Source: Terriglobia bacterium (GTDB taxonomy: Bacteria > Acidobacteriota > Terriglobia > Acidiferrales > UBA7541). From it: DNA of 64,000 nucleotides. Shown here piece after piece: positions 567 through 60,392 of the stretch. The position numbers and the translations under genes are program-made. The stretch spans positions 1,280,001 to 1,344,000 of the forward strand of contig OY968796.1 in the NCBI GenBank assembly GCA_963695545.1, given 5' to 3'. Each line of letters starts with the position of its first letter. Positions within the stretch are counted from its first letter, which is position 1. The notes under the pieces are model-generated. The model worked only from the letters and a program-made list of their open reading frames with translations, was not told the origin of the DNA and made no database searches.

Positions 567-1428
567 GCCGGAGCCGGTAGGCGCGTCCGCCACACCCGCG
601 GCAGTGGCCGCGGCCGCAGCGGCGCCGGCGCTCGCGCCGGCTGGCCCGTCCGGCGCGCAGATGGTGGATATCGATCTGATCGAGCCGAGTCCGTATCAGC
701 CGCGCACGCGCTTCCGTGAGGAAGCACTGGAAGAGCTGGCTCGCTCGATCTCCACTAACGGAATCATTCAGCCGCTCGTGCTCCGCGCGATTGGCTCGCG
801 CTTTCAACTAATCGCCGGAGAGCGACGGTGGCGCGCAGCGCAGCGCGCCGGCCTGCGCCGAGTGCCGAGCATTTTGCGCGACGTGCCGGAAGAACTCGCG
901 CTCGAAATCACACTCGTCGAAAACATTCAGCGCGAAGACTTAAATCCGATCGAGCAGGCGCGGGCATTTGAGCGGCTAATGACGGAGTTTCACCTGACCC
1001 AGGAAGACGTGGCTGTGCGCACCGGCAAGGATCGGGCGACGGTCGCGAATTCCCTGCGCCTGCTGAAGCTTGAAAAGTCCGTTCTTGAAGCGATCGAGGA
1101 CGGCAAGATTTCTGCTGGCCACGGTCGCGCGCTGCTCGGCGTGGCAGATCCGAAGGTGCGCGCTGCTCTGGCGGCGCGAGCCTCGCGCGGCGGTCTGACT
1201 GTGCGCCAGATCGAGCGAATCGGCTCGCGGCGCGCTCGCAAAATCGAACGCACGGAGGAAGCTCCGGCCGCCGATCCGAACGTGCGAGCGGCCATCGAGG
1301 AATTGCAGCGCCATTTGGGCACTCGGGTCACACTACGGCCGCCCAGCAACAAGTTTCCAGGACAACTGCGGATCGAGTATTACGAAGACACGCAGCTCTC
1401 GGGAATTTATGAGAAGCTCATGAAATAA
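520..1428 (+). CDS. parB: ParB/Spo0J partition protein
   Basis: RNALGKGLGALI N-terminus, PYQPR, IAGERRWRA arginine patch, ENIQREDL. Confidence 0.96.
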   Translation: MPRNALGKGLGALIREPEPVGASATPAAVAAAAAAPALAPAGPSGAQMVDIDLIEPSPYQPRTRFREEALEELARSISTNGIIQPLVLRAIGSRFQLIAGERRWRAAQRAGLRRVPSILRDVPEELALEITLVENIQREDLNPIEQARAFERLMTEFHLTQEDVAVRTGKDRATVANSLRLLKLEKSVLEAIEDGKISAGHGRALLGVADPKVRAALAARASRGGLTVRQIERIGSRRARKIERTEEAPAADPNVRAAIEELQRHLGTRVTLRPPSNKFPGQLRIEYYEDTQLSGIYEKLMK

Positions 1429-1558
1429 CTATGGATGTAGTAGTTTAATCTTTGGCGCGGCCGCGCATCGCGCGTCTTGCCGACGGGCTGCGACGCGGTG
1501 CAAAATGGGACTCTTTGAACGGAGCAACGCGCTGAGCGCAATCTTGTCGAGGTGAATC

Positions 1559-1990
1559 GTGAGCTGGCCATTTTCTAAGCGAGACTCCGGCGAAGTGTCG
1601 GGCGATTGGACCGGCTTTCTCGACAAGGGCGTCCATCTCGAGGGCACGTTAGAACTGCCCGGAACATTTCGCCTCGACGCTTCCGTCAAGGGCAACATCC
1701 TCTCGAACCACAGCCTCATCCTAGGCGAAGGCGCGCGTGTGGAAGGCCAAATCGAAGGAAATCACATCGCGATTTCCGGCCATTTCGATGGCGTGATTTT
1801 CGCGAAGGGCCGAGTCGAGATTCTTGCCAAGGGCGTAGTCACCGGCGAAATTCACTCCCCGTGCCTCGTGATTGAGGCGGGCGGAATCTTTGACGGCAAA
1901 TGCCACATGCTGGCTGCGTCCGAGGCCGCGGGGCCGATCACCATTCCGATTCGATCCGTGCGCGGTCGCGGCACGGCGAAATCCTCTTAG
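1559..1990 (+). CDS. Bactofilin (polymer-forming cytoskeletal protein)
   Basis: Repeating V/I-x-G-x-I beta-helix pattern ending in LVIEAGGIFDGKCHM. Confidence 0.88.
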   Translation: MSWPFSKRDSGEVSGDWTGFLDKGVHLEGTLELPGTFRLDASVKGNILSNHSLILGEGARVEGQIEGNHIAISGHFDGVIFAKGRVEILAKGVVTGEIHSPCLVIEAGGIFDGKCHMLAASEAAGPITIPIRSVRGRGTAKSS

Positions 1991-2073
1991 ACCTTCATGT
2001 TTTGCAATCGTGACGCACGCCTGCGGTAGCCTCAGCATGTCTGCGCGCATCTAACATTTTTCAATCCCGCCTC

Positions 2074-3291
2074 ATGGACACAATCACACACGGAATCGTC
2101 GGAGCGCTGATCGGGAAAGCATTTTTCGCGGGGCGCGACGAACCAGCGGTGAACGGGCAGTCCGCGCGAAGCGATCGCGGGGCGCGCGTCGCTATCGTGG
2201 CGACCACGCTCGGCGCGATCTTTCCCGATATCGATACGTTCGCCGGCCCGCTCGCGCACAATCCTTTCGCGATCATGGAGTGGCACCGCAACATCACGCA
2301 TTCACTCGTGATGTTGCCGGTGTGGGCGATTTTGTTGGCGCTTCTGACGCGAATTCTCGTGCGCTGGCGAGATTGGGAATCGCCATCGTGGCCCCGCCTG
2401 TTCGTGATCTACGCGGTCGGACTTGCGAGCCACATTTTTCTCGATGTCATCACATCGTTCGGAACGATGGTTTGGAGTCCGGTGCGCTACACGCGCGTGG
2501 CGTGGGACTGGATGTTCATCCTGGATTTCACGCTGGTCGCGCTCGCGCTCGTGCCGCAACTCGTGGCTTGGTCCCTGCGGAGGCCCGCTCGTCAGAAGCT
2601 GCGCGCGGTCTGCATATGGATTGCGTGCACCGCCGCCGCGTTCGGAATTTACGCCCTGGCTTCAGCCGCCGGCTATCCTTTCGGTCGCTGGGTGGTGGGT
2701 CTGGCAAGCGGCCTCGTGGCGCTGGCGGTCGGCATGGCGGCGATTGAAGGCTGGGGATTTAGGGTGCGGCGCTCGACCTGGTGCCGCGTGGGAGTCCTGC
2801 TGGTTGCGGCATACATCGCGCTCGCGGGATTTGCACATCATGCGGCGCTTGCGCGCACCGAATCATTTGCGGAGGCGCGGCATCTGCGTGTCGAGAGTCT
2901 TGGCGCGCTGCCGTCGCCGCCTTCGGTCGCAACGTGGGAAGGTTTGGTGCGCACGCCCGATGGGGTATATCGCCTGCCGATGGATTTGCGCCACGCGGCG
3001 ACGCCGGCAGCAGTCTATTACGCGGACACAGCGAGCAGCCGAACGATCCGCGACGCGGACGACCTGCGCCCGGTGCAAGTCTACTTATGGTTTGCGCGAT
3101 TTCCGTGGTTCCGCTGGAGCGAGCACGATGGCCAGCGCGTGCTCGACATTTCCGATCTGCAATTTCTGCGCATCACCGAGGGTCCGGCGAATGCGACGAT
3201 CCGCCCGGGTGCCGCGAACTTCACAATGGAAGTGACCTTCGATCGATCGGGGCACGCGGTGTCTGCGGATTGGGCGCAGCCGGAAAAATGA
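2074..3291 (+). CDS. Membrane-bound metal-dependent hydrolase (YdjM/DUF457-like)
   Basis: MDTITH, PDID, HRNITHSL and SHIFLD motifs with TM segments. Confidence 0.85.
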   Translation: MDTITHGIVGALIGKAFFAGRDEPAVNGQSARSDRGARVAIVATTLGAIFPDIDTFAGPLAHNPFAIMEWHRNITHSLVMLPVWAILLALLTRILVRWRDWESPSWPRLFVIYAVGLASHIFLDVITSFGTMVWSPVRYTRVAWDWMFILDFTLVALALVPQLVAWSLRRPARQKLRAVCIWIACTAAAFGIYALASAAGYPFGRWVVGLASGLVALAVGMAAIEGWGFRVRRSTWCRVGVLLVAAYIALAGFAHHAALARTESFAEARHLRVESLGALPSPPSVATWEGLVRTPDGVYRLPMDLRHAATPAAVYYADTASSRTIRDADDLRPVQVYLWFARFPWFRWSEHDGQRVLDISDLQFLRITEGPANATIRPGAANFTMEVTFDRSGHAVSADWAQPEK

Positions 3292-3355
3292 CGCCGGCTG
3301 CATTTCTAAATTTTACGGGATTCGCGGCGCGCGCCGAACTTCGGTGTAGATACGT

Positions 3356-3904
3356 TCAGCGGGCCGCGGCCGGATAGACGACAACCTGGCGCTCTTCGCC
3401 GTCGCCTTCGCTCGCTGTGCGCACTCCGGCTTCCTCTTGCAGCGCCAAATGCACGATGCGGCGTTCGCGCGCGGACATCGGATTGAAGCGGAACGGCGCC
3501 TTGGTTTCGCGCACGCGTTCGGCGGCCACCTGCGCCGAAAGGCGCAGCTCCTCGATGCGCATGCCGCGATAGCCGCCCGAATCGAAGCGCACGCGGTCAA
3601 AAAGCTGGGGATCGAGGCGAATCCATCGCAATGCGATATATTCAAGCGACTTCAGCAACTCGGCATTGTGCTCGAGCAAAAGTTCCTGATCCGCGCCGCT
3701 GAAATCGACGCTCACTTCCGGGTGCTCGTAGCCCGGGGCGCTCGCGGCGTCAGGCTCCTGGCGAATTTTGTACGAGACATCGAGGCGCGCCTTGGGCAGC
3801 AATGCATCAAGACACCGAGCGAGAGCCGCCGAGACTTGCTCGCGATCAATGTGCCCTTCGCGGACCAGTGGCGAAGCGGCCGGTTGTGATTTTGGCTGGG
3901 GCAT
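3356..3904 (-). CDS. jag: Jag/EloR (KhpB)-like RNA-binding protein with R3H domain
   Basis: NPMSARERRIVHLAL and SEGDGEERQVVV R3H motifs; downstream of yidC. Confidence 0.85.
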   Translation of the reverse strand: MPQPKSQPAASPLVREGHIDREQVSAALARCLDALLPKARLDVSYKIRQEPDAASAPGYEHPEVSVDFSGADQELLLEHNAELLKSLEYIALRWIRLDPQLFDRVRFDSGGYRGMRIEELRLSAQVAAERVRETKAPFRFNPMSARERRIVHLALQEEAGVRTASEGDGEERQVVVYPAAAR

Positions 3905-3931
3905 CGGCGATCGAAGTTTCTTGAACGTTTC

Positions 3932-5680
3932 CTAGTTCTTCTTGGGGCCGCGTCCCCGTCCGGCTTTCGGGGGCGGCGGCATGGTGCGGTTCAAGTAATA
4001 CTGCTGCGCCATTCCCACAAGGTTGCTGGTCACAATATATAACGCGAGACCGCTCGGATAAAAAATAAAGAAGACCGCGAACATCACGGGCATCAACGCC
4101 ATCATGCGCTGCTGCGCCGGGTCCACCTGCGGCGTGGGCGTCATCTTCTGCATCAGGTACGCGGTGACGCCGTAGAGCGCCGGCAAAATGTAGTGCGGGT
4201 CGGGCGCGGAGAGGTCGTGCAGCAAATAAAAATGCCAAAGCATCCACGGGGCATGTCGCAAATCGATGGTGTACGCCAGCATGCGGTAGAACGCGAACCA
4301 GATGGGAAATTGAATCAGCATCGGCCAGCAGGAACCCAGCGGATTGATTCCCTCGCGTGAATACAGCGCCATCATTTCTTCGTTCATCTTCTGCTTGCGC
4401 GGATCGCGCATGCCGAACTTCTTGTATTTTTCCTGGATGGCTTTGATCTCAGGCGAAACGCGCTGCATTTTCTGCGCCGAGCGCATGCCCTTGGCCTTCA
4501 GCGGATACAGCAACATGTTGATGAAGATCGTGAGCACCACGATCGCCCAGCCCCAGTCCGGCACATAGTCGTGCACCCAGCGCAGCGCATAGAACAGCGG
4601 TTCGGAAAGAACCGTGAACCATCCAAAATTCAAGATGTCGTTGAGCGGCGGCCGAATGGCTTTGAGCGCGTCGAGACTCTTGGGACCTACGTAAATTCGC
4701 ACGGAGAGCGGACCGTTCCCGGTCGTACCCGCCGCCATTTCCGGGGTCAGTTGAGTTGTAACCTTGTCGCCATCCTGGATTTCCTGACTCGAGGCCCAAT
4801 CGGTCAGCGTCAGGTCCGGCGTGACAGCGCCCGCGGAGCTCTCCGGCGACAAGAACGCCGCGGCAAAATATTGGTCTTCGATGCCGGCGAACTCGAACGG
4901 GCCAGTCAATGTCGTGCGCACGGTAGGTTGTTTCGGCTGGCCCAAATTCTTCGCGGCGAGCGCCGTGAGCTTGGTGGCCTGGCTGTAGAAAACTTGCACG
5001 CCTTGCACACCGCGCCGATAGCCGTGCACGGTGGGGTCGCCGAAGCCGCCGCGCCAGGCGAGGCCGGCAGGCAGCGGCTGTCCATCCTTGCGCACGGTGA
5101 CGTCGGCCTCGACGATGTAATCGTTGCCGAATTTCAGATGCTTGGTCACTTCGAGATGGCCGTCGCTCCACACCATCTCAAGTTCGGCCGGCGCCTCGAT
5201 CACGCCGGGAGCTGCGGCGCCGGCAACATTGATTTCGTAAAATCCGGAATTGGCCGCGGCTTCGAGTTGCGGATCGCTCAACGCGACCGAGAATGGCCAC
5301 GCGTCTTCTTGCCGGGCGATATCGGTGTGAACCAAATCGAGGGGTTGCGGGGGTTGGGCGTCGTTGGTGTATTTGCGAAGTTGCCAGCTTCGAACCACCC
5401 CGCCGCGATTCCAAATCTCCACGCGATAGAGCGGGCTTTCGACGACCACGCTGTGTTCGCTCGCCGCGGCCCGCACCGCGACGACGGCGGGCGCCGCGTT
5501 GACCACCGGAGTATTGGATGTCTGCGTCTGCGGCGCGGCGGTTGTGGTCGCGCTCGCGGGCGCTTGCTGACCGGGCGGAGGCTGCGGTGGCGCTTTATAG
5601 AGATACGACGAGGCGAGAATGACGATCAGCGAAAGCGCTGCGGCCAGCACTACGCGAGTCTGGTCTGAGGTTTCCTTCAC
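3932..5680 (-). CDS. yidC: Membrane protein insertase YidC
   Basis: WGWAIVVLT, GINPLGSCWPMLIQFP and PSGLALY motifs; canonical gene order. Confidence 0.96.
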   Translation of the reverse strand: MKETSDQTRVVLAAALSLIVILASSYLYKAPPQPPPGQQAPASATTTAAPQTQTSNTPVVNAAPAVVAVRAAASEHSVVVESPLYRVEIWNRGGVVRSWQLRKYTNDAQPPQPLDLVHTDIARQEDAWPFSVALSDPQLEAAANSGFYEINVAGAAAPGVIEAPAELEMVWSDGHLEVTKHLKFGNDYIVEADVTVRKDGQPLPAGLAWRGGFGDPTVHGYRRGVQGVQVFYSQATKLTALAAKNLGQPKQPTVRTTLTGPFEFAGIEDQYFAAAFLSPESSAGAVTPDLTLTDWASSQEIQDGDKVTTQLTPEMAAGTTGNGPLSVRIYVGPKSLDALKAIRPPLNDILNFGWFTVLSEPLFYALRWVHDYVPDWGWAIVVLTIFINMLLYPLKAKGMRSAQKMQRVSPEIKAIQEKYKKFGMRDPRKQKMNEEMMALYSREGINPLGSCWPMLIQFPIWFAFYRMLAYTIDLRHAPWMLWHFYLLHDLSAPDPHYILPALYGVTAYLMQKMTPTPQVDPAQQRMMALMPVMFAVFFIFYPSGLALYIVTSNLVGMAQQYYLNRTMPPPPKAGRGRGPKKN

Positions 5681-5931
5681 GACCGCGCCCCACTCGCGCG
5701 CGAGACGCGATGCGATTCAGTTTCGTCCAGGCGCTCGGGAACGGGATCGAAGCCGCCGGGCCCAAATGGATGGCAGCGCCCGAGCCGGCGCAACGCCAGC
5801 CACGCGCCGCGGCGCGCTCCGTGCACGCGGATGGCTTCCGCGGCGTAGCGCGAACAAGTAGGATGAAATTTACAGGGCGAAACCATCAGCGGCGAGAGCA
5901 CGCCCTGATACGCGCCGATCACGCCCAGCAA
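5677..5931 (-). CDS. yidD: Membrane protein insertion efficiency factor YidD
   Basis: CKFHPTCSRYA and RCHPFGPGGFDPVP motifs; TTG start chosen because GGAAGG lies just upstream (start uncertain). Confidence 0.88.
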   Translation of the reverse strand: MLGVIGAYQGVLSPLMVSPCKFHPTCSRYAAEAIRVHGARRGAWLALRRLGRCHPFGPGGFDPVPERLDETESHRVSRASGARS

Positions 5932-5957
5932 AATTCGCGCCTTCCAATCCGGGCGAG

Positions 5958-6428
5958 CTAGTGCGGCGTCGCGCGGGGCCGCGCCGGCGGCGGATTCCGC
6001 AGCGGGCTCCGCAGCACGCCCTGCACCAGATTCCGCAACTCCGCTTCGAGCGGCGTGAACGGCGCTTCGGCCACCGAGCGTCGCGGATGAATCACGATGT
6101 CCCATCCCGTCGGATACTCCGATCGATTGCGCCGCAGAATTTCGCGAATGCGGCGCCGTATGCGGTTGCGTACCACCGCGCTCCCCAGCGCTTTTTTCAC
6201 GCTGATGCCGAAACGGCTGCGCGAGAGACTATTCGCGCGATAGAAAATTGCGAACTGCGGACTGGAACGCCTCTGGCCGCCGCGATACACGGCCTCAAAA
6301 TCCGAGCGGCGCAGCAGGCGCGCGTCCCGGGGAAAACCGAGTCCGCCGCCGGCCGAAGCGCCTTGCTCAGATGGGCGTAAGTTTATGGCGTCCCTTCTTG
6401 CGGCGCGCCGCCAGCACCTTGCGTCCAC
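5958..6428 (-). CDS. rnpA: Ribonuclease P protein component
   Basis: [25 protein letters not shown] (RNR motif); start uncertain, the only canonical start lies inside rpmH. Confidence 0.92.
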
Positions 6429-6507
6429 CGACCGTTTTCATGCGCGTACGAAATCCGTGCGTTTTGTGACGGCGGCGCACTTTGGGTTGAAAGGTGCGTT
6501 TCGGCAA
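6367..6507 (-). CDS. rpmH: 50S ribosomal protein L34 (not in ORF track)
   Basis: Manual translation from [57 protein letters not shown]-like sequence upstream. Confidence 0.95.
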
Positions 6508-6735
6508 GAAGGCCCCCTCGGTCCGCCTCGGCGGACCAAATCAAAACCATCAGTCTATGCGACCACGCTCGGGCGGTCAACTTAAGCGCCCGCGCGCAGC
6601 TCTTCTATTTAAGACGGATGGCCTTGTCGAATATTTCGATCAGCGAGGAATCGGGCCTCGCTCGGAGGCAGCCGGCGCGCGTCGCGGCAAGTTCCGGTAC
6701 CGCGACACCGAGCCGCTCGAACCGATCAATTGAAT

Positions 6736-7035
6736 CTAGTGCTGATTCTTGTCCGGATGACCATTCCCATGATCCGGCTGAGCATGGCGGTAGTTCCAAT
6801 ACGCCTTCTGATCGTCTGGTTTCAGTTTGTTGTATGGCACATACGCCCGATTGTTGGTAGAAAGCCAGCCGCGGTAATACACGTCTTCGCCGTTGTTCCA
6901 ATAATGATAGTCGCCGTAGTAGGGGTCGTAGACGCTGTAGCCCACGCGCGCGGCGCAGCCCGTGGTAGTCAAAACTGGAGCCGTGATCGTCGAGGCCAGA
7001 AAGATTAATCCGAGAATTCGTTTTGCACGGGTCAT
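6736..7035 (-). CDS. Hypothetical small lipoprotein
   Basis: GGAG SD, signal peptide ending TTGC, Tyr/Trp-rich mature part. Confidence 0.65.
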   Translation of the reverse strand: MTRAKRILGLIFLASTITAPVLTTTGCAARVGYSVYDPYYGDYHYWNNGEDVYYRGWLSTNNRAYVPYNKLKPDDQKAYWNYRHAQPDHGNGHPDKNQH

Positions 7036-7210
7036 GGCGAAACTCCTCCGTCAAAAAGTGTAGCCTCGCCGCTGGGTGCGGGCCTTAAGCGCATCCATAC
7101 CTGCAATTATGATGCGAAATTCGCGCCAATCGTTTCGATGCGGCTTTGCTGTCGATCACACCACGTTTCTGCGGTTCGGCGTCGGCCTGCTACAATAAAT
7201 TCCGACCAAA

Positions 7211-8560
7211 ATGTTCGACAACCTCACCGACAAGCTCCAGCGCGTCTTCAAGAATCTGCGCGGTCAAGGCAAGCTGAGCGAAGAGCACCTCGATCAAGCG
7301 CTCACCGGCATCCGCGAAGCGCTGCTCGAAGGCGACGTCAACGTCGGCGTGGCCGACGAACTCCTCGCGCACATCCGCGAAAAATCTCTCGGCGCGGAAG
7401 TGCTGCTGCAACTTTCGCCAGACCAGCACGTCATCAAAATCGTTCGCGACGAACTGCTCACCCTGCTCGGCAAGCACGCGAAGCCGCTCTTCGCCTCGCG
7501 CCCGCCGTCGGTGTGGATGATGGTCGGCCTGCAGGGCTCGGGCAAAACCACCACCACAGGAAAACTCGCCAAATGGCTGGCCGGGCACGGTCACCGTCCG
7601 ATGGTGGTTTCAACCGACGTGTATCGCCCCGCAGCGCGCGAGCAATTGGCGCAAGTGGCGAAAGCCGTTGGCGCGCCCATCTGGCCCGGCGCAGGAACCG
7701 ATAAGCCGCTCGAAATCGTGCGCGGCGCGATTCGCGAAGCGAAGTTGTCCGCGTCCGACGTGATCCTGATCGATACAGCCGGGCGATTGCACATCGACGA
7801 AGACCTGATGGTCGAGCTGAGCAATCTCAAACGCGAGCTGACCCCGTCGGAAATCCTTTTCGTCGCCGATGCCATGACCGGCCAGGACGCTGTGCGCTCC
7901 GCGGGAGAATTCCATCGCCGGCTTGGCCTCACGGGCGTGGTGCTCACGAAACTCGATGGCGATGCGCGCGGCGGTGCGGCGCTCTCGATCGGCAAGGTCA
8001 CGGGCGCGGCGGTGAAATTCGTAGGCACGGGCGAAAAATACGACGCGCTCGACGCGTTTTATCCCGACCGCATCGTTTCGCGCGTCCTGGGCATGGGCGA
8101 CGTGCTTTCACTGATCGAGCGCGTCGAGCACTCCGTCGACGAAAAGCAAGCCGCCGAAATGGAGCGCAAGCTCCGCCGCAGCGAATTCACGCTCGAAGAT
8201 TTCCGCGATCAATTGCGCCAGGTTCGCAAGATGGGACCGCTCGAACAAGTGCTCGGAATGCTGCCCAAAGTCGGCCCTCTCGCAAATCTTCCGAAAGACA
8301 CGCAGATCGACGAATCGCGCTTGAAGCGCGTCGAGGCCGTCATCAATTCGATGACGGCGTCCGAACGCGCCGATCACGCCCTGCTCGACGGCAAGCGCCG
8401 CAAACGCATCGCGCGCGGCAGCGGCACCAGCGTGCAGGAAGTCAATCAGGTCGTGAAGCAATATCTGCAGATGCGGCAGATGGTGAAGCAATACGGCGCG
8501 TTGGCCGCTAAAGGCCGCCTGCGCGGGATGAGCGGCGGCGGAGCGAAGCCCGGCGCTTAG
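7211..8560 (+). CDS. ffh: Signal recognition particle protein Ffh
   Basis: GLQGSGKTTT, DTAGRL and TKLDGDARGG motifs plus M domain; TGcTACAAT extended -10 at 7188-7196. Confidence 0.97.
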   Translation: MFDNLTDKLQRVFKNLRGQGKLSEEHLDQALTGIREALLEGDVNVGVADELLAHIREKSLGAEVLLQLSPDQHVIKIVRDELLTLLGKHAKPLFASRPPSVWMMVGLQGSGKTTTTGKLAKWLAGHGHRPMVVSTDVYRPAAREQLAQVAKAVGAPIWPGAGTDKPLEIVRGAIREAKLSASDVILIDTAGRLHIDEDLMVELSNLKRELTPSEILFVADAMTGQDAVRSAGEFHRRLGLTGVVLTKLDGDARGGAALSIGKVTGAAVKFVGTGEKYDALDAFYPDRIVSRVLGMGDVLSLIERVEHSVDEKQAAEMERKLRRSEFTLEDFRDQLRQVRKMGPLEQVLGMLPKVGPLANLPKDTQIDESRLKRVEAVINSMTASERADHALLDGKRRKRIARGSGTSVQEVNQVVKQYLQMRQMVKQYGALAAKGRLRGMSGGGAKPGA

Positions 8561-8709
8561 CTCCGCGTCAAATCGTTGTGCAGTCTCTGCGAACGGAAAT
8601 ACGCGGCAGTTGCCGCCGCGCGCGAGCGAACCCCTAAGAGCGCGCGGCGCATCCAATCCGCGTTGCGCGACATCCAGTTTTTGACCGCCATTTTTCGGAG
8701 AGACGCTGC

Positions 8710-57470: not shown

Positions 57471-57582
57471 GTGCAAGGGCTCCTGTGGAGTGAGGAATTT
57501 ACCCGGACCGCCCAGCATACCGGCGCGCTTCGCCGCCTGTCAAACAACGCCGGAAACGGGTAGTGGGCTGTTTTGAATCGAT

Positions 57583-57786
57583 TCACTTGAGGGTCGTACA
57601 ATTCGGAAAATCACCCAAAGGTTCTGATTTTGGGAGAAGTGCGCAAATTTGCCCTGTTTTAGTATCCAGCGCCGTGAGGTTTGCCGCATTGTAAATCACA
57701 AATCGCTGTGCTCCTGACGTTCGTAATGACAGCCAAAGAGCTATGCAGGCGATTGTCAAAGCCACCCAAGATACAATTCTTTGCAT
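57583..57786 (-). CDS. Small hypothetical membrane-anchored protein (IS cargo)
   Basis: GGGGG SD-like sequence, N-terminal TM, LDTKTGQIC segment. Confidence 0.55.
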   Translation of the reverse strand: MQRIVSWVALTIACIALWLSLRTSGAQRFVIYNAANLTALDTKTGQICALLPKSEPLGDFPNCTTLK

Positions 57787-57830
57787 TGTTTCCCCCTGCG
57801 GATGATCGTCGTTTGTGGCATAATCCTATC

Positions 57831-58094
57831 ATGCATGGCCGTTCAAGCAAGAGAGATACAGCGCAAAACGCGCTCCGAATTGTTGAGGAAGCCACTGGCG
57901 GTCCCCTGAAAGAGGAACGAAAGCCGATACTGTTTCCAGTGAAGCCAAAAAAGAAAAATCCTGCCGCTGTCGCACTGGGTAAACTTGGCGGGATAAAAGG
58001 CGGGAAAGCACGGGCCGCTAAACTGTCTCCTGAGCGAAGAAAAGCAATAGCCCAACGTGCCGCGCAAGCACGCTGGGCTAAAGGTGAGAGTTAA
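57831..58094 (+). CDS. Small basic protein (KNPAAVALGKLGG..GGKARA type), putative IS regulator
   Basis: Highly basic C-terminal helices; leaderless ATG 6 nt after TGgCATAAT. Confidence 0.75.
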   Translation: MHGRSSKRDTAQNALRIVEEATGGPLKEERKPILFPVKPKKKNPAAVALGKLGGIKGGKARAAKLSPERRKAIAQRAAQARWAKGES

Positions 58095-58274
58095 TCGGTA
58101 AATCGGTGTTGTTGTTCCACCACGCCCCAAGTCATTTCGTCCGGCCAAAGGCTAGATGACTTGGGGCTTCGTGTTTTCGCTCCTCGGCACGGTGGGTGCG
58201 TGGCCGTGAGCTATCGGTATTATTTTTCGCATCTTTGACCTCGCGTTCGAACGCCCGTTCTGCCAGCGAGCGTT

Positions 58275-59096
58275 TTACTTAGCAGAATTTTTCTCAACGA
58301 CAACCTTAAGCGATCCTCGGCTGTCGTCGGAATCTTTGTAAATCACATTGAAGATCGTAGACGCCATTTCCAGCCACTTCTTGCGATCTTCGGTTGTCCA
58401 TTCCGCTTGTGGTTCGGGTAGCTCCTTGAGTAGTCCCTCGATCAAAGGATGCCGTTTTGTCTCCGGCTGTTCGTGCTTTCGTTTTGGCTCTTTTGGCTCC
58501 TCTTCCTCCTCGTCCCGTTCCTCCAAAACCTCTGTCCTGCTGCTGGCCTTGATACTCGGAGCCACAAGGCGAGAATTGCCAAACTCAAAGAACCCGGCTT
58601 GTTTTGCGGACCTCTGAAATACTTGACGTGCTTTTTCTTTTACCTTTGGACCAACTCCCAAAGTGACCATTGCGCCCACTAGTCCAGAAGTCGGTGGCAG
58701 GGTTGCGCCCTTGAATTGCTCATAGAGCGCCTTGTAAAGCGGAACGGTTAGGAATGAATCGACTCGGGCAGCTTTTTCTTGGTCTGGATCACAAATGCGC
58801 GTACCTAGTTGTGTGAGGGTGACGGTTCCGCGATCATAGGTTAGCAATCCGTACATTTTTGCTGTCAGAGCGCGAAGCCTAAATCCACCGCCGTTCGCCG
58901 CTTGCTGGAAATGTCCAGCCAGTTGATCCCATTGGCACGATGAACCGCCGACAGTGTGTACGCCCTTGGCGAACGTCACTGCATCGTCAAGGTCAAGATA
59001 TGGAAAGCCGATTGTGGATCGTTCTCGACTCCCCTCGCTCTCTTGGGCTTCAGCAACCACTTGTGGTTCTTCTTTCAGCGCTTCCTTTGGTGACAT
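58275..59096 (-). CDS. Hypothetical protein with winged-helix-like N-terminus (IS cargo)
   Basis: AAGGAGG SD; FPYLDL...YGLL...VTLTQLG wHTH-like pattern, acidic linker, small C-terminal helical domain. Confidence 0.75.
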   Translation of the reverse strand: MSPKEALKEEPQVVAEAQESEGSRERSTIGFPYLDLDDAVTFAKGVHTVGGSSCQWDQLAGHFQQAANGGGFRLRALTAKMYGLLTYDRGTVTLTQLGTRICDPDQEKAARVDSFLTVPLYKALYEQFKGATLPPTSGLVGAMVTLGVGPKVKEKARQVFQRSAKQAGFFEFGNSRLVAPSIKASSRTEVLEERDEEEEEPKEPKRKHEQPETKRHPLIEGLLKELPEPQAEWTTEDRKKWLEMASTIFNVIYKDSDDSRGSLKVVVEKNSAK

Positions 59097-59233
59097 ATCA
59101 GAGCCTCCTTTCGGGCTAGTGACACTCTAATGCCTCCATCGGGATAAAGTCAATGCTTGTTTTCCTATTTAGGAAAGTAAAATACCAAGTTTTCCACAGC
59201 CTGTATAATAAAGGATGGATCAGCACTATTTAC

Positions 59234-59262
59234 TTGACAGCTTGCGCGCTCAAGGATACAAT
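59234..59262 (+). promoter_or_regulatory. Transposase promoter with palindromic operator in the spacer
   Basis: TTGACA-17nt-TACAAT; cttgcgcgctcaag in the spacer. Confidence 0.7.
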
Positions 59263-59271
59263 GTGCGCATT

Positions 59272-60120
59272 ATGAATCGCTTAACATTAAACAAAAGAGC
59301 GCAAGTGGTGAATGCCTTGGTTGAAGGAAACAGCATCCGGGCAACGGTAAGGCTAACCGGAGTCTGTAAGGATGCCGTTATCAAGCTGATTCGTGACTTC
59401 GGCAAGACCTGTGCGGACCACCACAATCGTGCCGTTCGTAACGTACATTCGCGCCGCGTGCAGTGCGATGAGGCATGGTCGTTCTGCTACGCGAAGGCTA
59501 AGAACGTTCCAGAAGAAAAGCTAGGAACGGGAGCCGGGGACGTGTGGACGTGGACCGCGATTGATGCCGATTCGAAATTGGTCCTGTCATACCTGTGCGG
59601 CGGACGGAGTGCGGAATGGGGTTATAAGTTCATGGAGGATTTAGCATCGCGAGTGTCCAGTCGCATCCAAATCACGACTGACGGTCATCGTGTCTACGCG
59701 GAGGCCGTCGAAGGTGCTTTTGGAATGGACGTGGACTACGCGATGCTCATAAAAGTCTACGGGAACGATGCTGCGCCAGATACGCGCTACAGCCCAGCCG
59801 AGTGTATTGGCATTCGCACCGCTGTCCTTGCGGGACGCCCGGACCCACGGCATATTTCTACGAGCTACGCGGAGAGGTTGAATCTCAATCTGAGAATGGG
59901 TATGCGAAGATTCACGCGCTTGACGAATGCCTTCTCCAAGAAATTCGAGAATCACTGTCACATGGTCGCAATCTATTTCGCGTACTACAATTTCTGCCGC
60001 ATCCACCAGACACTCAGGGTTACGCCAGCGATGGAGGCCGGATTAGCAGACCACGTTTGGAGTCTTGAAGAGTTGGTTGGTCTGTTGGAGGCCGAAGAGA
60101 AGATAGAAAGGGCGGCATGA
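59272..60120 (+). CDS. IS1-family DDE transposase (single ORF)
   Basis: N-terminal HTH (GNSIRATVRLTGV); QCDEAWSF, TTDGH and ERLN catalytic motifs; RLTNAFSKK and TPAMEAG. Confidence 0.9.
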   Translation: MNRLTLNKRAQVVNALVEGNSIRATVRLTGVCKDAVIKLIRDFGKTCADHHNRAVRNVHSRRVQCDEAWSFCYAKAKNVPEEKLGTGAGDVWTWTAIDADSKLVLSYLCGGRSAEWGYKFMEDLASRVSSRIQITTDGHRVYAEAVEGAFGMDVDYAMLIKVYGNDAAPDTRYSPAECIGIRTAVLAGRPDPRHISTSYAERLNLNLRMGMRRFTRLTNAFSKKFENHCHMVAIYFAYYNFCRIHQTLRVTPAMEAGLADHVWSLEELVGLLEAEEKIERAA

Positions 60121-60121
60121 A

Positions 60122-60367
60122 ATGAAAAACACGGTCGAAGTTGGAATGCTCATACTTGCGGTGATCGGCGCAGTTGGTGGAATATGGAATCGACTAAAGC
60201 TGAACAAAGGGATCGGCATTCGGTTTATTCAGTATCTAGGACTTACAGTGCTTGTCCCGCTTGTTGTGCTTTTGTCGCTAGAGGACAGAATCAGCCAGGA
60301 GATGACTGGAGCCATTGTTGCAACAGCCGTGGGGGCTGTCTTGGCCGGAATCGGAAAAGAAGAATGA
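60122..60367 (+). CDS. Small three-TM membrane protein (IS cargo)
   Basis: Three hydrophobic helices; starts directly after the transposase stop; its own stop overlaps the right TIR. Confidence 0.65.
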   Translation: MKNTVEVGMLILAVIGAVGGIWNRLKLNKGIGIRFIQYLGLTVLVPLVVLLSLEDRISQEMTGAIVATAVGAVLAGIGKEE

Positions 60368-60392
60368 AAACAGCCCACTACCCGGAAACGGT

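Follow-up and report, generated by a model that had tools for sequence, protein, structure and literature searches.

An IS1-family cargo transposon of an acidobacterium and the promoter register of its lineage's insertion sites

The window analysed here is a stretch of 64,000 nucleotides from a Terriglobia bacterium (assembly GCA_963695545.1, contig OY968796.1, positions 1,280,001 to 1,344,000 of the forward strand), and the subject of this analysis is the transposon located at window positions 57559-60382. The element is an IS1-family cargo transposon of an ordinary class, and the lineage to which it belongs displays a statistically very strong promoter register in its insertion sites.

The element and its insertion site

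The element spans 2824 bp and has a G+C content of 51%, against 60.6% for the genome. Its 16 terminal bases, GGTAGTGGGCTGTTTT, match at 16 of 16 positions between the left terminal inverted repeat (57559..57574, + strand) and the right one (60367..60382, − strand), and this sequence is found exactly once on each strand of the 4.16-Mb genome. When flank lengths of 4-15 were tried, a direct repeat was found only at length 8 (CGGAAACG), with copies at 57551..57558 and 60383..60390 on the + strand, the left of which would lie at about −50 to −43 of a host promoter. The perfect 16-bp inverted repeats and the 8-bp duplication that had been read from the sequence in the original prediction were thus borne out. 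The host neighbours are an M13 peptidase gene and a gene for an acyl-CoA ligase/acyltransferase, and the closest relatives of the element are found in Acidobacteriota. The only match to Rfam in the search of the element for structured RNA was a chance match (E 0.83).

The prediction had also held that the IS1-family element is intact, recently active and of the transporter type, and had proposed a search for the empty site in relatives. The site is empty in one same-genus genome. Further, contigs from two of the four runs of one soil study join position 57549 to 60382, the short side of the junction being only 20 letters. The 2832 bases that these contigs skip correspond exactly to the element with one copy of the duplication; the population is therefore probably still polymorphic for the insertion, and the claim of an intact, recently inserted element stands. 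In soil runs X2 and X4, contigs carry a 62-base deletion (window 59856-59917) across the codon for the catalytic glutamate of the transposase, and part of the population therefore holds an inactivated copy. In another same-genus genome (G004, contig C28, 3736-6799; locus L172), the same two host genes are separated by about 3 kb of other DNA, in which there is no transposase of this family.

The transposase (59272..60120, + strand) is an IS1-family DDE enzyme (named after its catalytic Asp, Asp and Glu residues) of 282 amino acids, with a helix-turn-helix, the residues D66, D137 and E201, and no zinc finger. Its start is likely the ATG at 59272 and not position 59215, M1 being nearly invariant among 62 homologues, in which the three catalytic residues are invariant. 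The protein aligns to the helix-turn-helix end of E. coli InsA and to InsB (hhalign, 94% to InsB and 80% to InsA). It is encoded in a single open frame without a CxxC pair, and the helix-turn-helix is the only part of InsA that aligns, as expected from the earlier description of a single-frame IS1 transposase devoid of the InsA zinc finger and of a frameshift. The IS1 models PF03400 (Pfam) and NF033558 (NCBIfam) were matched by all 62 aligned members; the transposase of the window scores above the Pfam cut-off (29.6 vs 24.1) and below that of NCBIfam (58 vs 100). PF03811 had no match anywhere in the genome.

Between the second aspartate and the glutamate, the transposase carries an insert of about 40 codons (59725..59856, + strand) that has no counterpart in classical IS1. 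It is predicted to form a beta-hairpin, with the invariant residues K161, Y163, G164, Y173 and S174, and is a candidate targeting part. In an AlphaFold model (predicted local distance difference test score, pLDDT, 88), the protein adopts an RNase H-type DDE core and the insert appears as a two-stranded hairpin. Fold searches with the transposase placed a structure of the IS256 family (ISCth4) at the top, tied with retroviral integrases, which fits a shared DDE core. Searches by sequence found no solved relatives of the transposase, of the small basic protein or of the 273-aa passenger described below.

Promoter register across the lineage

The site occupied by the element lies next to a predicted host promoter. 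Its −35 box, TTGACA (57538..57543, − strand), starts 15 bp from the left junction, and its −10 box, TATGCT (57514..57519, − strand), is found 18 bp beyond the −35 box, upstream of the M13 peptidase gene. This promoter, TTGACA-18-TATGCT, points at the peptidase gene, and both boxes are kept in two element-free genomes of the same genus (G003 and G004).

The lineage is a very large one: each of the 8000 candidates that were scored proved homologous, which gives at least 8000 homologous clusters. In total, 143 complete elements of 1257 to 5363 bp were delimited, 141 of them with 8-bp and two with 7-bp duplications. A first set comprised 64 complete elements from 82 loci (80 genome loci, a paralogue and the window); a second yielded 38 complete elements from 80 metagenome loci, and a third 41 from 80 viral-contig loci. 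The original prediction had suggested a quasi-palindromic empty site with a possible CCG-N4-CGG preference. The rebuilt empty site of the element does read CCG-GAAA-CGG, but none of the relatives' targets has CCG-N4-CGG (0/59, then 0/134), nor do these targets show an excess of palindromy over the flanking DNA (p 0.18-0.28), so that both kinds of target were rejected. The outcome that was to refute the prediction, random targets among the homologues, was not seen either; instead, insertions were found at a fixed register upstream of predicted sigma70-type promoters.

This register became apparent in the first set, where, at 8-10 bases outside the duplication, CAA marks one flank and TTG the other. 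When the flanks are read outward, TTGAC begins 7 bases past the duplication (15 from the junction) in 17 of 128 of them, as against 0-1 at every other offset, with a TAnnnT box 17-18 bases beyond it. The offset found in this way was then tested in the other two sets at fixed positions and with unoriented flanks, after dropping four and two duplicate sites, respectively. In the metagenome set, TTGAC occurred at offset 7 in 8/66 flanks (at most 1 elsewhere) and TAnnnT 9 times at offset 30 and 8 times at offset 31 (no more than 3 at any other); in the viral-contig set, TTGAC occurred at offset 7 in 8/78 flanks (at most 2 elsewhere), and the corresponding counts for TAnnnT were 7 and 3.

Pooling gave 136 distinct sites, the window's own site being excluded. 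TTGAC was in register in 32/264 flanks compared with 23/18,744 other positions (p 8e-46), and the −10 box in 59/528 compared with 126/18,480 (p 3e-46). At least one box was in register at 90 of the 136 sites (both boxes at 26, only the −35 at 34, only the −10 at 30, neither at 46), whereas shifted registers gave about 5% and at most 9%. The TTGAC-like peak is one base wide, with 62 flanks at 15 bp and 3-4 at 14 and 16 bp. The −35 box stays at offset 7 whether the −10 box is at offset 30 (17 cases) or 31 (8 cases), and the −10 peak persists at the 42 sites that have at least three mismatches to TTGAC on both sides (16/168, p 3e-13). The signal is one-sided, being present on both sides at only 7/136 sites, and in 51 cases it adjoins the left end of the element, in 37 the right. 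Boxes in register also occur at sites in Alpha-, Beta- and Deltaproteobacteria, Desulfarculales and Binataceae. A smaller TTGAC-like peak (17/264), perhaps due to base bias in the duplication, was observed at 5 bp from the end, closer to the junction by one helical turn.

Classical E. coli IS1, sampled from 80 viral-contig loci, had 2/126 unique junctions in register as compared with 62/264 flanks of the lineage (p 1e-9), in a control made up of enterobacterial prophage contigs that keep the duplication in 28 of 68 complete copies and are unmatched in host and context. In a sister clade with 42-47% identity and no basic gene, both boxes were in register in three of ten complete elements, one of them with a −35 box bearing two mismatches. 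The end of an older element directly adjoins the duplication at five sites, in all of them on the side away from the promoter and in none on the promoter side, which would be expected of repeated hits on one promoter at a single base. Other insertion sequences (IS) are also known to insert next to existing ends, which offers an alternative for this pattern.

Individual copies add some observations of their own. The genome holds a second element of the lineage (L001; G000, contig C1, ~2004500-2006900), of 2408 bp, with a transposase 57% identical and the duplication GGATTTTT; no clear promoter box was found in register at this copy. At locus L389 (positions 909-8566; G159, contig C2), three identical 2547-bp relatives lie in tandem with one copy of the same 8-bp duplication between each, an arrangement that may have arisen by serial insertion, by amplification or as an assembly artefact. 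Derivatives of 1.25-1.4 kb with ends and duplications intact were found at L048, L160, L272 and L275, and those at L160 and L272 are in promoter register.

Basic gene and passengers

Besides the transposase gene, the element contains four open reading frames, at 57583-57786 (−), 57831-58094 (+), 58275-59096 (−) and 60122-60367 (+). The original prediction had listed all four as passengers. The frames are there, but the second, which encodes a basic protein of 87 amino acids (57831..58094, + strand), is not cargo: it is a core gene present in about 95% of complete elements, namely 61/64 in the genome set, 35/38 in the metagenome set and 39/41 in the viral-contig set, the first of these counts having been made by clustering and including a few cases in which the protein is the N-terminus of a longer one. 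A cargo protein of 350-390 amino acids that opens with the basic motif of the core protein was observed at L052, L055, L057, L059, L072 and L078. The family of the basic protein amounts to 15,626 representatives at E 0.001, and its invariant residues are D9, A14, R81 and W82. A short basic-motif match to the start of phrog_2384 was the sole family match among the non-transposase frames in Pfam, NCBIfam and PHROG.

An extended −10-like site, TGGCATAAT (57816..57824, + strand), lies 6 bp before the basic gene and is predicted to be a leaderless promoter. Across the lineage, both core genes start 6-9 bases after the predicted −10 box (57816-57833 and 59257-59274 in the window); judging from sequence, this suggests leaderless transcripts for both. 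The predicted transposase promoter, TTGACA-17-TACAAT (59234..59262, + strand), holds in its spacer a CTTG-N6-CAAG palindrome that is a candidate operator; across the 64 elements of the first set, the promoter pattern occurs in 56 and the AAGC half-site in 54. A palindrome conserved at this position fits a putative repressor role of the basic protein, which is probably a regulator rather than a targeting factor. The palindrome is clear before the transposase gene and was seen before both core genes only in a few distant members. An operator shared by the two genes was rejected for this element, no copy being found before the basic gene either here or in the close clade. An 18-bp inverted repeat between the convergent basic and 273-aa genes (58118..58173, no strand assigned) may act as a terminator.

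The cargo proper differs between elements, and the variable cargo slots that had been predicted were confirmed among the 143 complete elements, in which cargo lies on both sides of the transposase gene. In the window, the leftmost frame (57583..57786, − strand) encodes 67 amino acids with a hydrophobic N-terminus and is a probable passenger. No homologue was found in the ~240 loci searched, it is absent from the protein collection, and its best Atlas score was 0.90 (hypothetical); that it is a real gene is plausible. The 273-aa passenger (58275..59096, − strand) belongs to the commonest cargo family, present in 41/141 elements. Its N-terminal domain is predicted to be winged-helix-like, with a lead to Mrr-N/DUF5343-like domains; a Foldseek search with its model returned only weak rows of the winged-helix type, none at E 0.001, and searches of Pfam and PADLOC gave no match. 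An 81-aa hydrophobic passenger (60122..60367, + strand) lies directly behind the transposase gene; two related genomes hold homologues of it (72% and 67%), one of which follows a related transposase. A recurrent pair in the downstream slot, a protein of about 90 amino acids followed by an aspartyl-protease-like protein, was observed at L005, L011, L018 and L023.

The suggestion that the cargo might serve in defence was borne out in part, by the relatives and not by this element's own passengers. None of the four non-transposase frames of the element matched the PADLOC protein models at E 0.1 (0/4). Of 105 cargo representatives of the relatives, chosen among 353 open reading frames, 77 were scanned and 18 gave a match, including matches to the RmrTA, SoFic, methyltransferase, PD-Lambda-2, HEC and PDC models.

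Proposed tethering to RNA polymerase, and known systems

These results lead us to propose, with a probability of roughly 0.7, that members of the lineage place one of their two junctions 15 bp upstream of a predicted sigma70 −35 box, whichever way round they insert, likely by means of a transposase tethered to RNA polymerase. Some parts of this proposal are firmer than others. Insertion is very likely targeted at promoters, and a protein contact with the holoenzyme is probable. We infer that the register is set at the moment of insertion. Sigma region 4 of promoter-bound RNA polymerase would be the point at which the transposase is tethered, and the contact between sigma and the −35 box would serve as the ruler; the ruler appears to start at the −35 because this box keeps one offset while the −10 shifts with a spacer of 17 or 18 bp. 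It seems to be the whole promoter that is chosen and not the TTGAC word, because the −10 peak remains where the −35 is poor. The adaptor would be the transposase itself, as is weakly indicated by the sister-clade elements that lack the basic gene and sit in register, and the best candidate part is the beta-hairpin between the second aspartate and the glutamate, although that this hairpin makes the contact is doubtful. With the duplication placed at about −50 to −43, an insertion would spare the two promoter boxes and the gene, so that a promoter-proximal site may be a safe harbour for passengers that are often of the defence type. A broader version, in which an IS1 lineage independently evolved RNA-polymerase-guided insertion, its hairpin docking on sigma region 4 and housekeeping promoters serving as reusable landing pads that stack defence-gene cassettes across several phyla, is offered as a tentative possibility. 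The genome encodes two RpoD-like primary sigma factors (L184 and L185), which are 86% identical in region 4.

The register might also arise without RNA polymerase. The transposase might read promoter DNA itself, either TTGAC or the bending or opening of the promoter, and the sharp fixation of TTGAC at one offset, the related GTCA/TTGAC words that both the ends of the element and its transposase promoter contain, and the mild composition bias of the duplicated bases would agree with such a mode of recognition. We regard it as improbable: at 38-39 bp from the junction, −10 boxes remain in excess at sites whose −35 position departs from TTGAC by at least three mismatches, and the motif is one-sided despite the symmetric ends. 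Even less credible is a loosely intergenic insertion after which selection leaves the copies that spare promoters and genes: it predicts a broad range of safe distances, yet the peak is a single base, survivors of classical IS1 show no peak, and the copy in the window is still polymorphic in its population yet already in register. What speaks for selection is that long open frames are depleted at the sites, that a third of the sites have no signal and that all sites are natural survivors, none of them fresh insertions.

A variant of tethering retains RNA polymerase as the target and makes the conserved basic protein the adaptor, bridging the transposase and either sigma or the C-terminal domain of the alpha subunit. 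The near-universal presence of the gene and the four invariant residues of its product would suit this role and, to our knowledge, there is no InsA counterpart in classical IS1, which does not target promoters. This variant seems to us about as improbable as direct reading of DNA, given that the register is kept without the basic gene at L397, L399 and L415 in the sister clade and at L024 and L160 in the main sets, and that the palindrome over the transposase promoter fits repression instead.

Tethering by the transposase itself, which we prefer, has to contend with a number of observations that weigh against it. Neither box is in register at 46/136 sites, the share in register is lower in the viral-contig set (18/39), and 7/10 sister-clade elements lack the exact register; action of the basic protein in trans is, moreover, conceivable in that clade. 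Within 350 bp, a gene start was no more frequent on the promoter side (45/69) than on the far side (43/69), and 39/105 sites are inside a stop-free frame of at least 200 codons, though 81% of random positions are. The boxes at the insertion sites are predicted promoters, the activity of which is deduced from their sequence, and the host and context of the classical IS1 control differ from those of the lineage. The link between hairpin and targeting comes from the absence of the hairpin in one non-targeting relative, classical IS1, in a comparison limited to this lineage, its sister clade and classical IS1, as queries with long-insert IS1 from Sphingomonas and Acaryochloris gave no loci.

The finding matters in several respects. 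The means by which bacterial transposases locate promoters was a matter of proposal in Guerillot et al. (2014, PMC3942029), and there for Mutator-like enzymes alone. The present lineage offers a small enzyme of 282 residues, with at least 8000 homologous clusters, and classical IS1 is a well-studied relative that lacks both the habit and the 40-residue insert, so the question is open to simple deletions and swaps. If the proposal is true, it would account for the spread of defence-type genes by a common cargo carrier that leaves host genes unbroken, and it hints at a tool for insertion into promoter-proximal safe harbours.

With regard to classification, the element has what defines the IS1 family: a DDE transposase homologous to InsAB', short inverted repeats starting GG(T) and a duplication of 8 bp, in the family range of 8-9 bp. 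Like classical IS1 (E. coli IS1A, with InsA and InsB), it has GGT ends, an 8-bp duplication and a homologous helix-turn-helix and catalytic core. It falls outside the classical subgroup, however, as it has neither the N-terminal zinc finger nor the insA/insB frameshift, and it further differs in the 40-residue insert between aspartate and glutamate, a longer C-terminus, its cargo and the insertion in promoter register. The ISMhu11 group of IS1, as distinguished by Siguier and colleagues in 2009, is reportedly without the zinc finger, keeps the helix-turn-helix, and has a longer spacing from aspartate to glutamate, a C-terminal extension and passenger genes. The transposase and cargo presumably fit this group, against which they were set by description, and we know of no promoter targeting in it. 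The passenger genes are enclosed by a single pair of IS ends with a single duplication, and the element is in this respect a transporter IS (tIS), a term for IS derivatives that carry passenger genes (PMC9330008). A literature search that left out ISfinder/TnPedia and the main IS reviews found no report of promoter-register insertion by IS1-family elements, and no report of it was found in passages of 10.1101/2025.07.22.666184, PMC9330008 and PMC9208149; the habit of this IS1 cargo lineage is apparently unreported so far.

The nearest parallel in behaviour is found in unrelated enzymes. TnGBS, ISLre2 (p-MULT 3) and the ISKra4 group (p-MULT 4) insert 15-17 bp upstream of the −35 box of sigmaA promoters, in both orientations when their two ends are near-identical, and contact with the RNA polymerase initiation complex was proposed for them by analogy with the yeast element Ty3 (Guerillot et al. 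2014, PMC3942029). Ty3, named there for its targeting through TFIIIB, is a more distant comparison, as it is a eukaryotic retrotransposon whose integrase acts at Pol III genes; the Ty3-related structure PDB 7q5b appeared in the fold search with the transposase. Membership of p-MULT was rejected for the present lineage: in place of the C/DxxH motif and the helical insert of those enzymes (PMC3942029) it has D137-G-H and an insert of two predicted beta strands, and none of the 62 members matched the ISLre2 or ISKra4 profiles, with weak matches of 5/62 to the IS256 model and 1/62 to PF00872. The element also differs in being driven by an IS1-type enzyme and in possessing a core basic gene and variable cargo. 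Like p-MULT 3 and 4, nevertheless, the lineage inserts 15 bp upstream of the −35 box, within their range of 15-17 bp (PMC3942029). That unrelated enzymes share the 15-bp distance suggests that it is dictated by the geometry of promoter-bound RNA polymerase.

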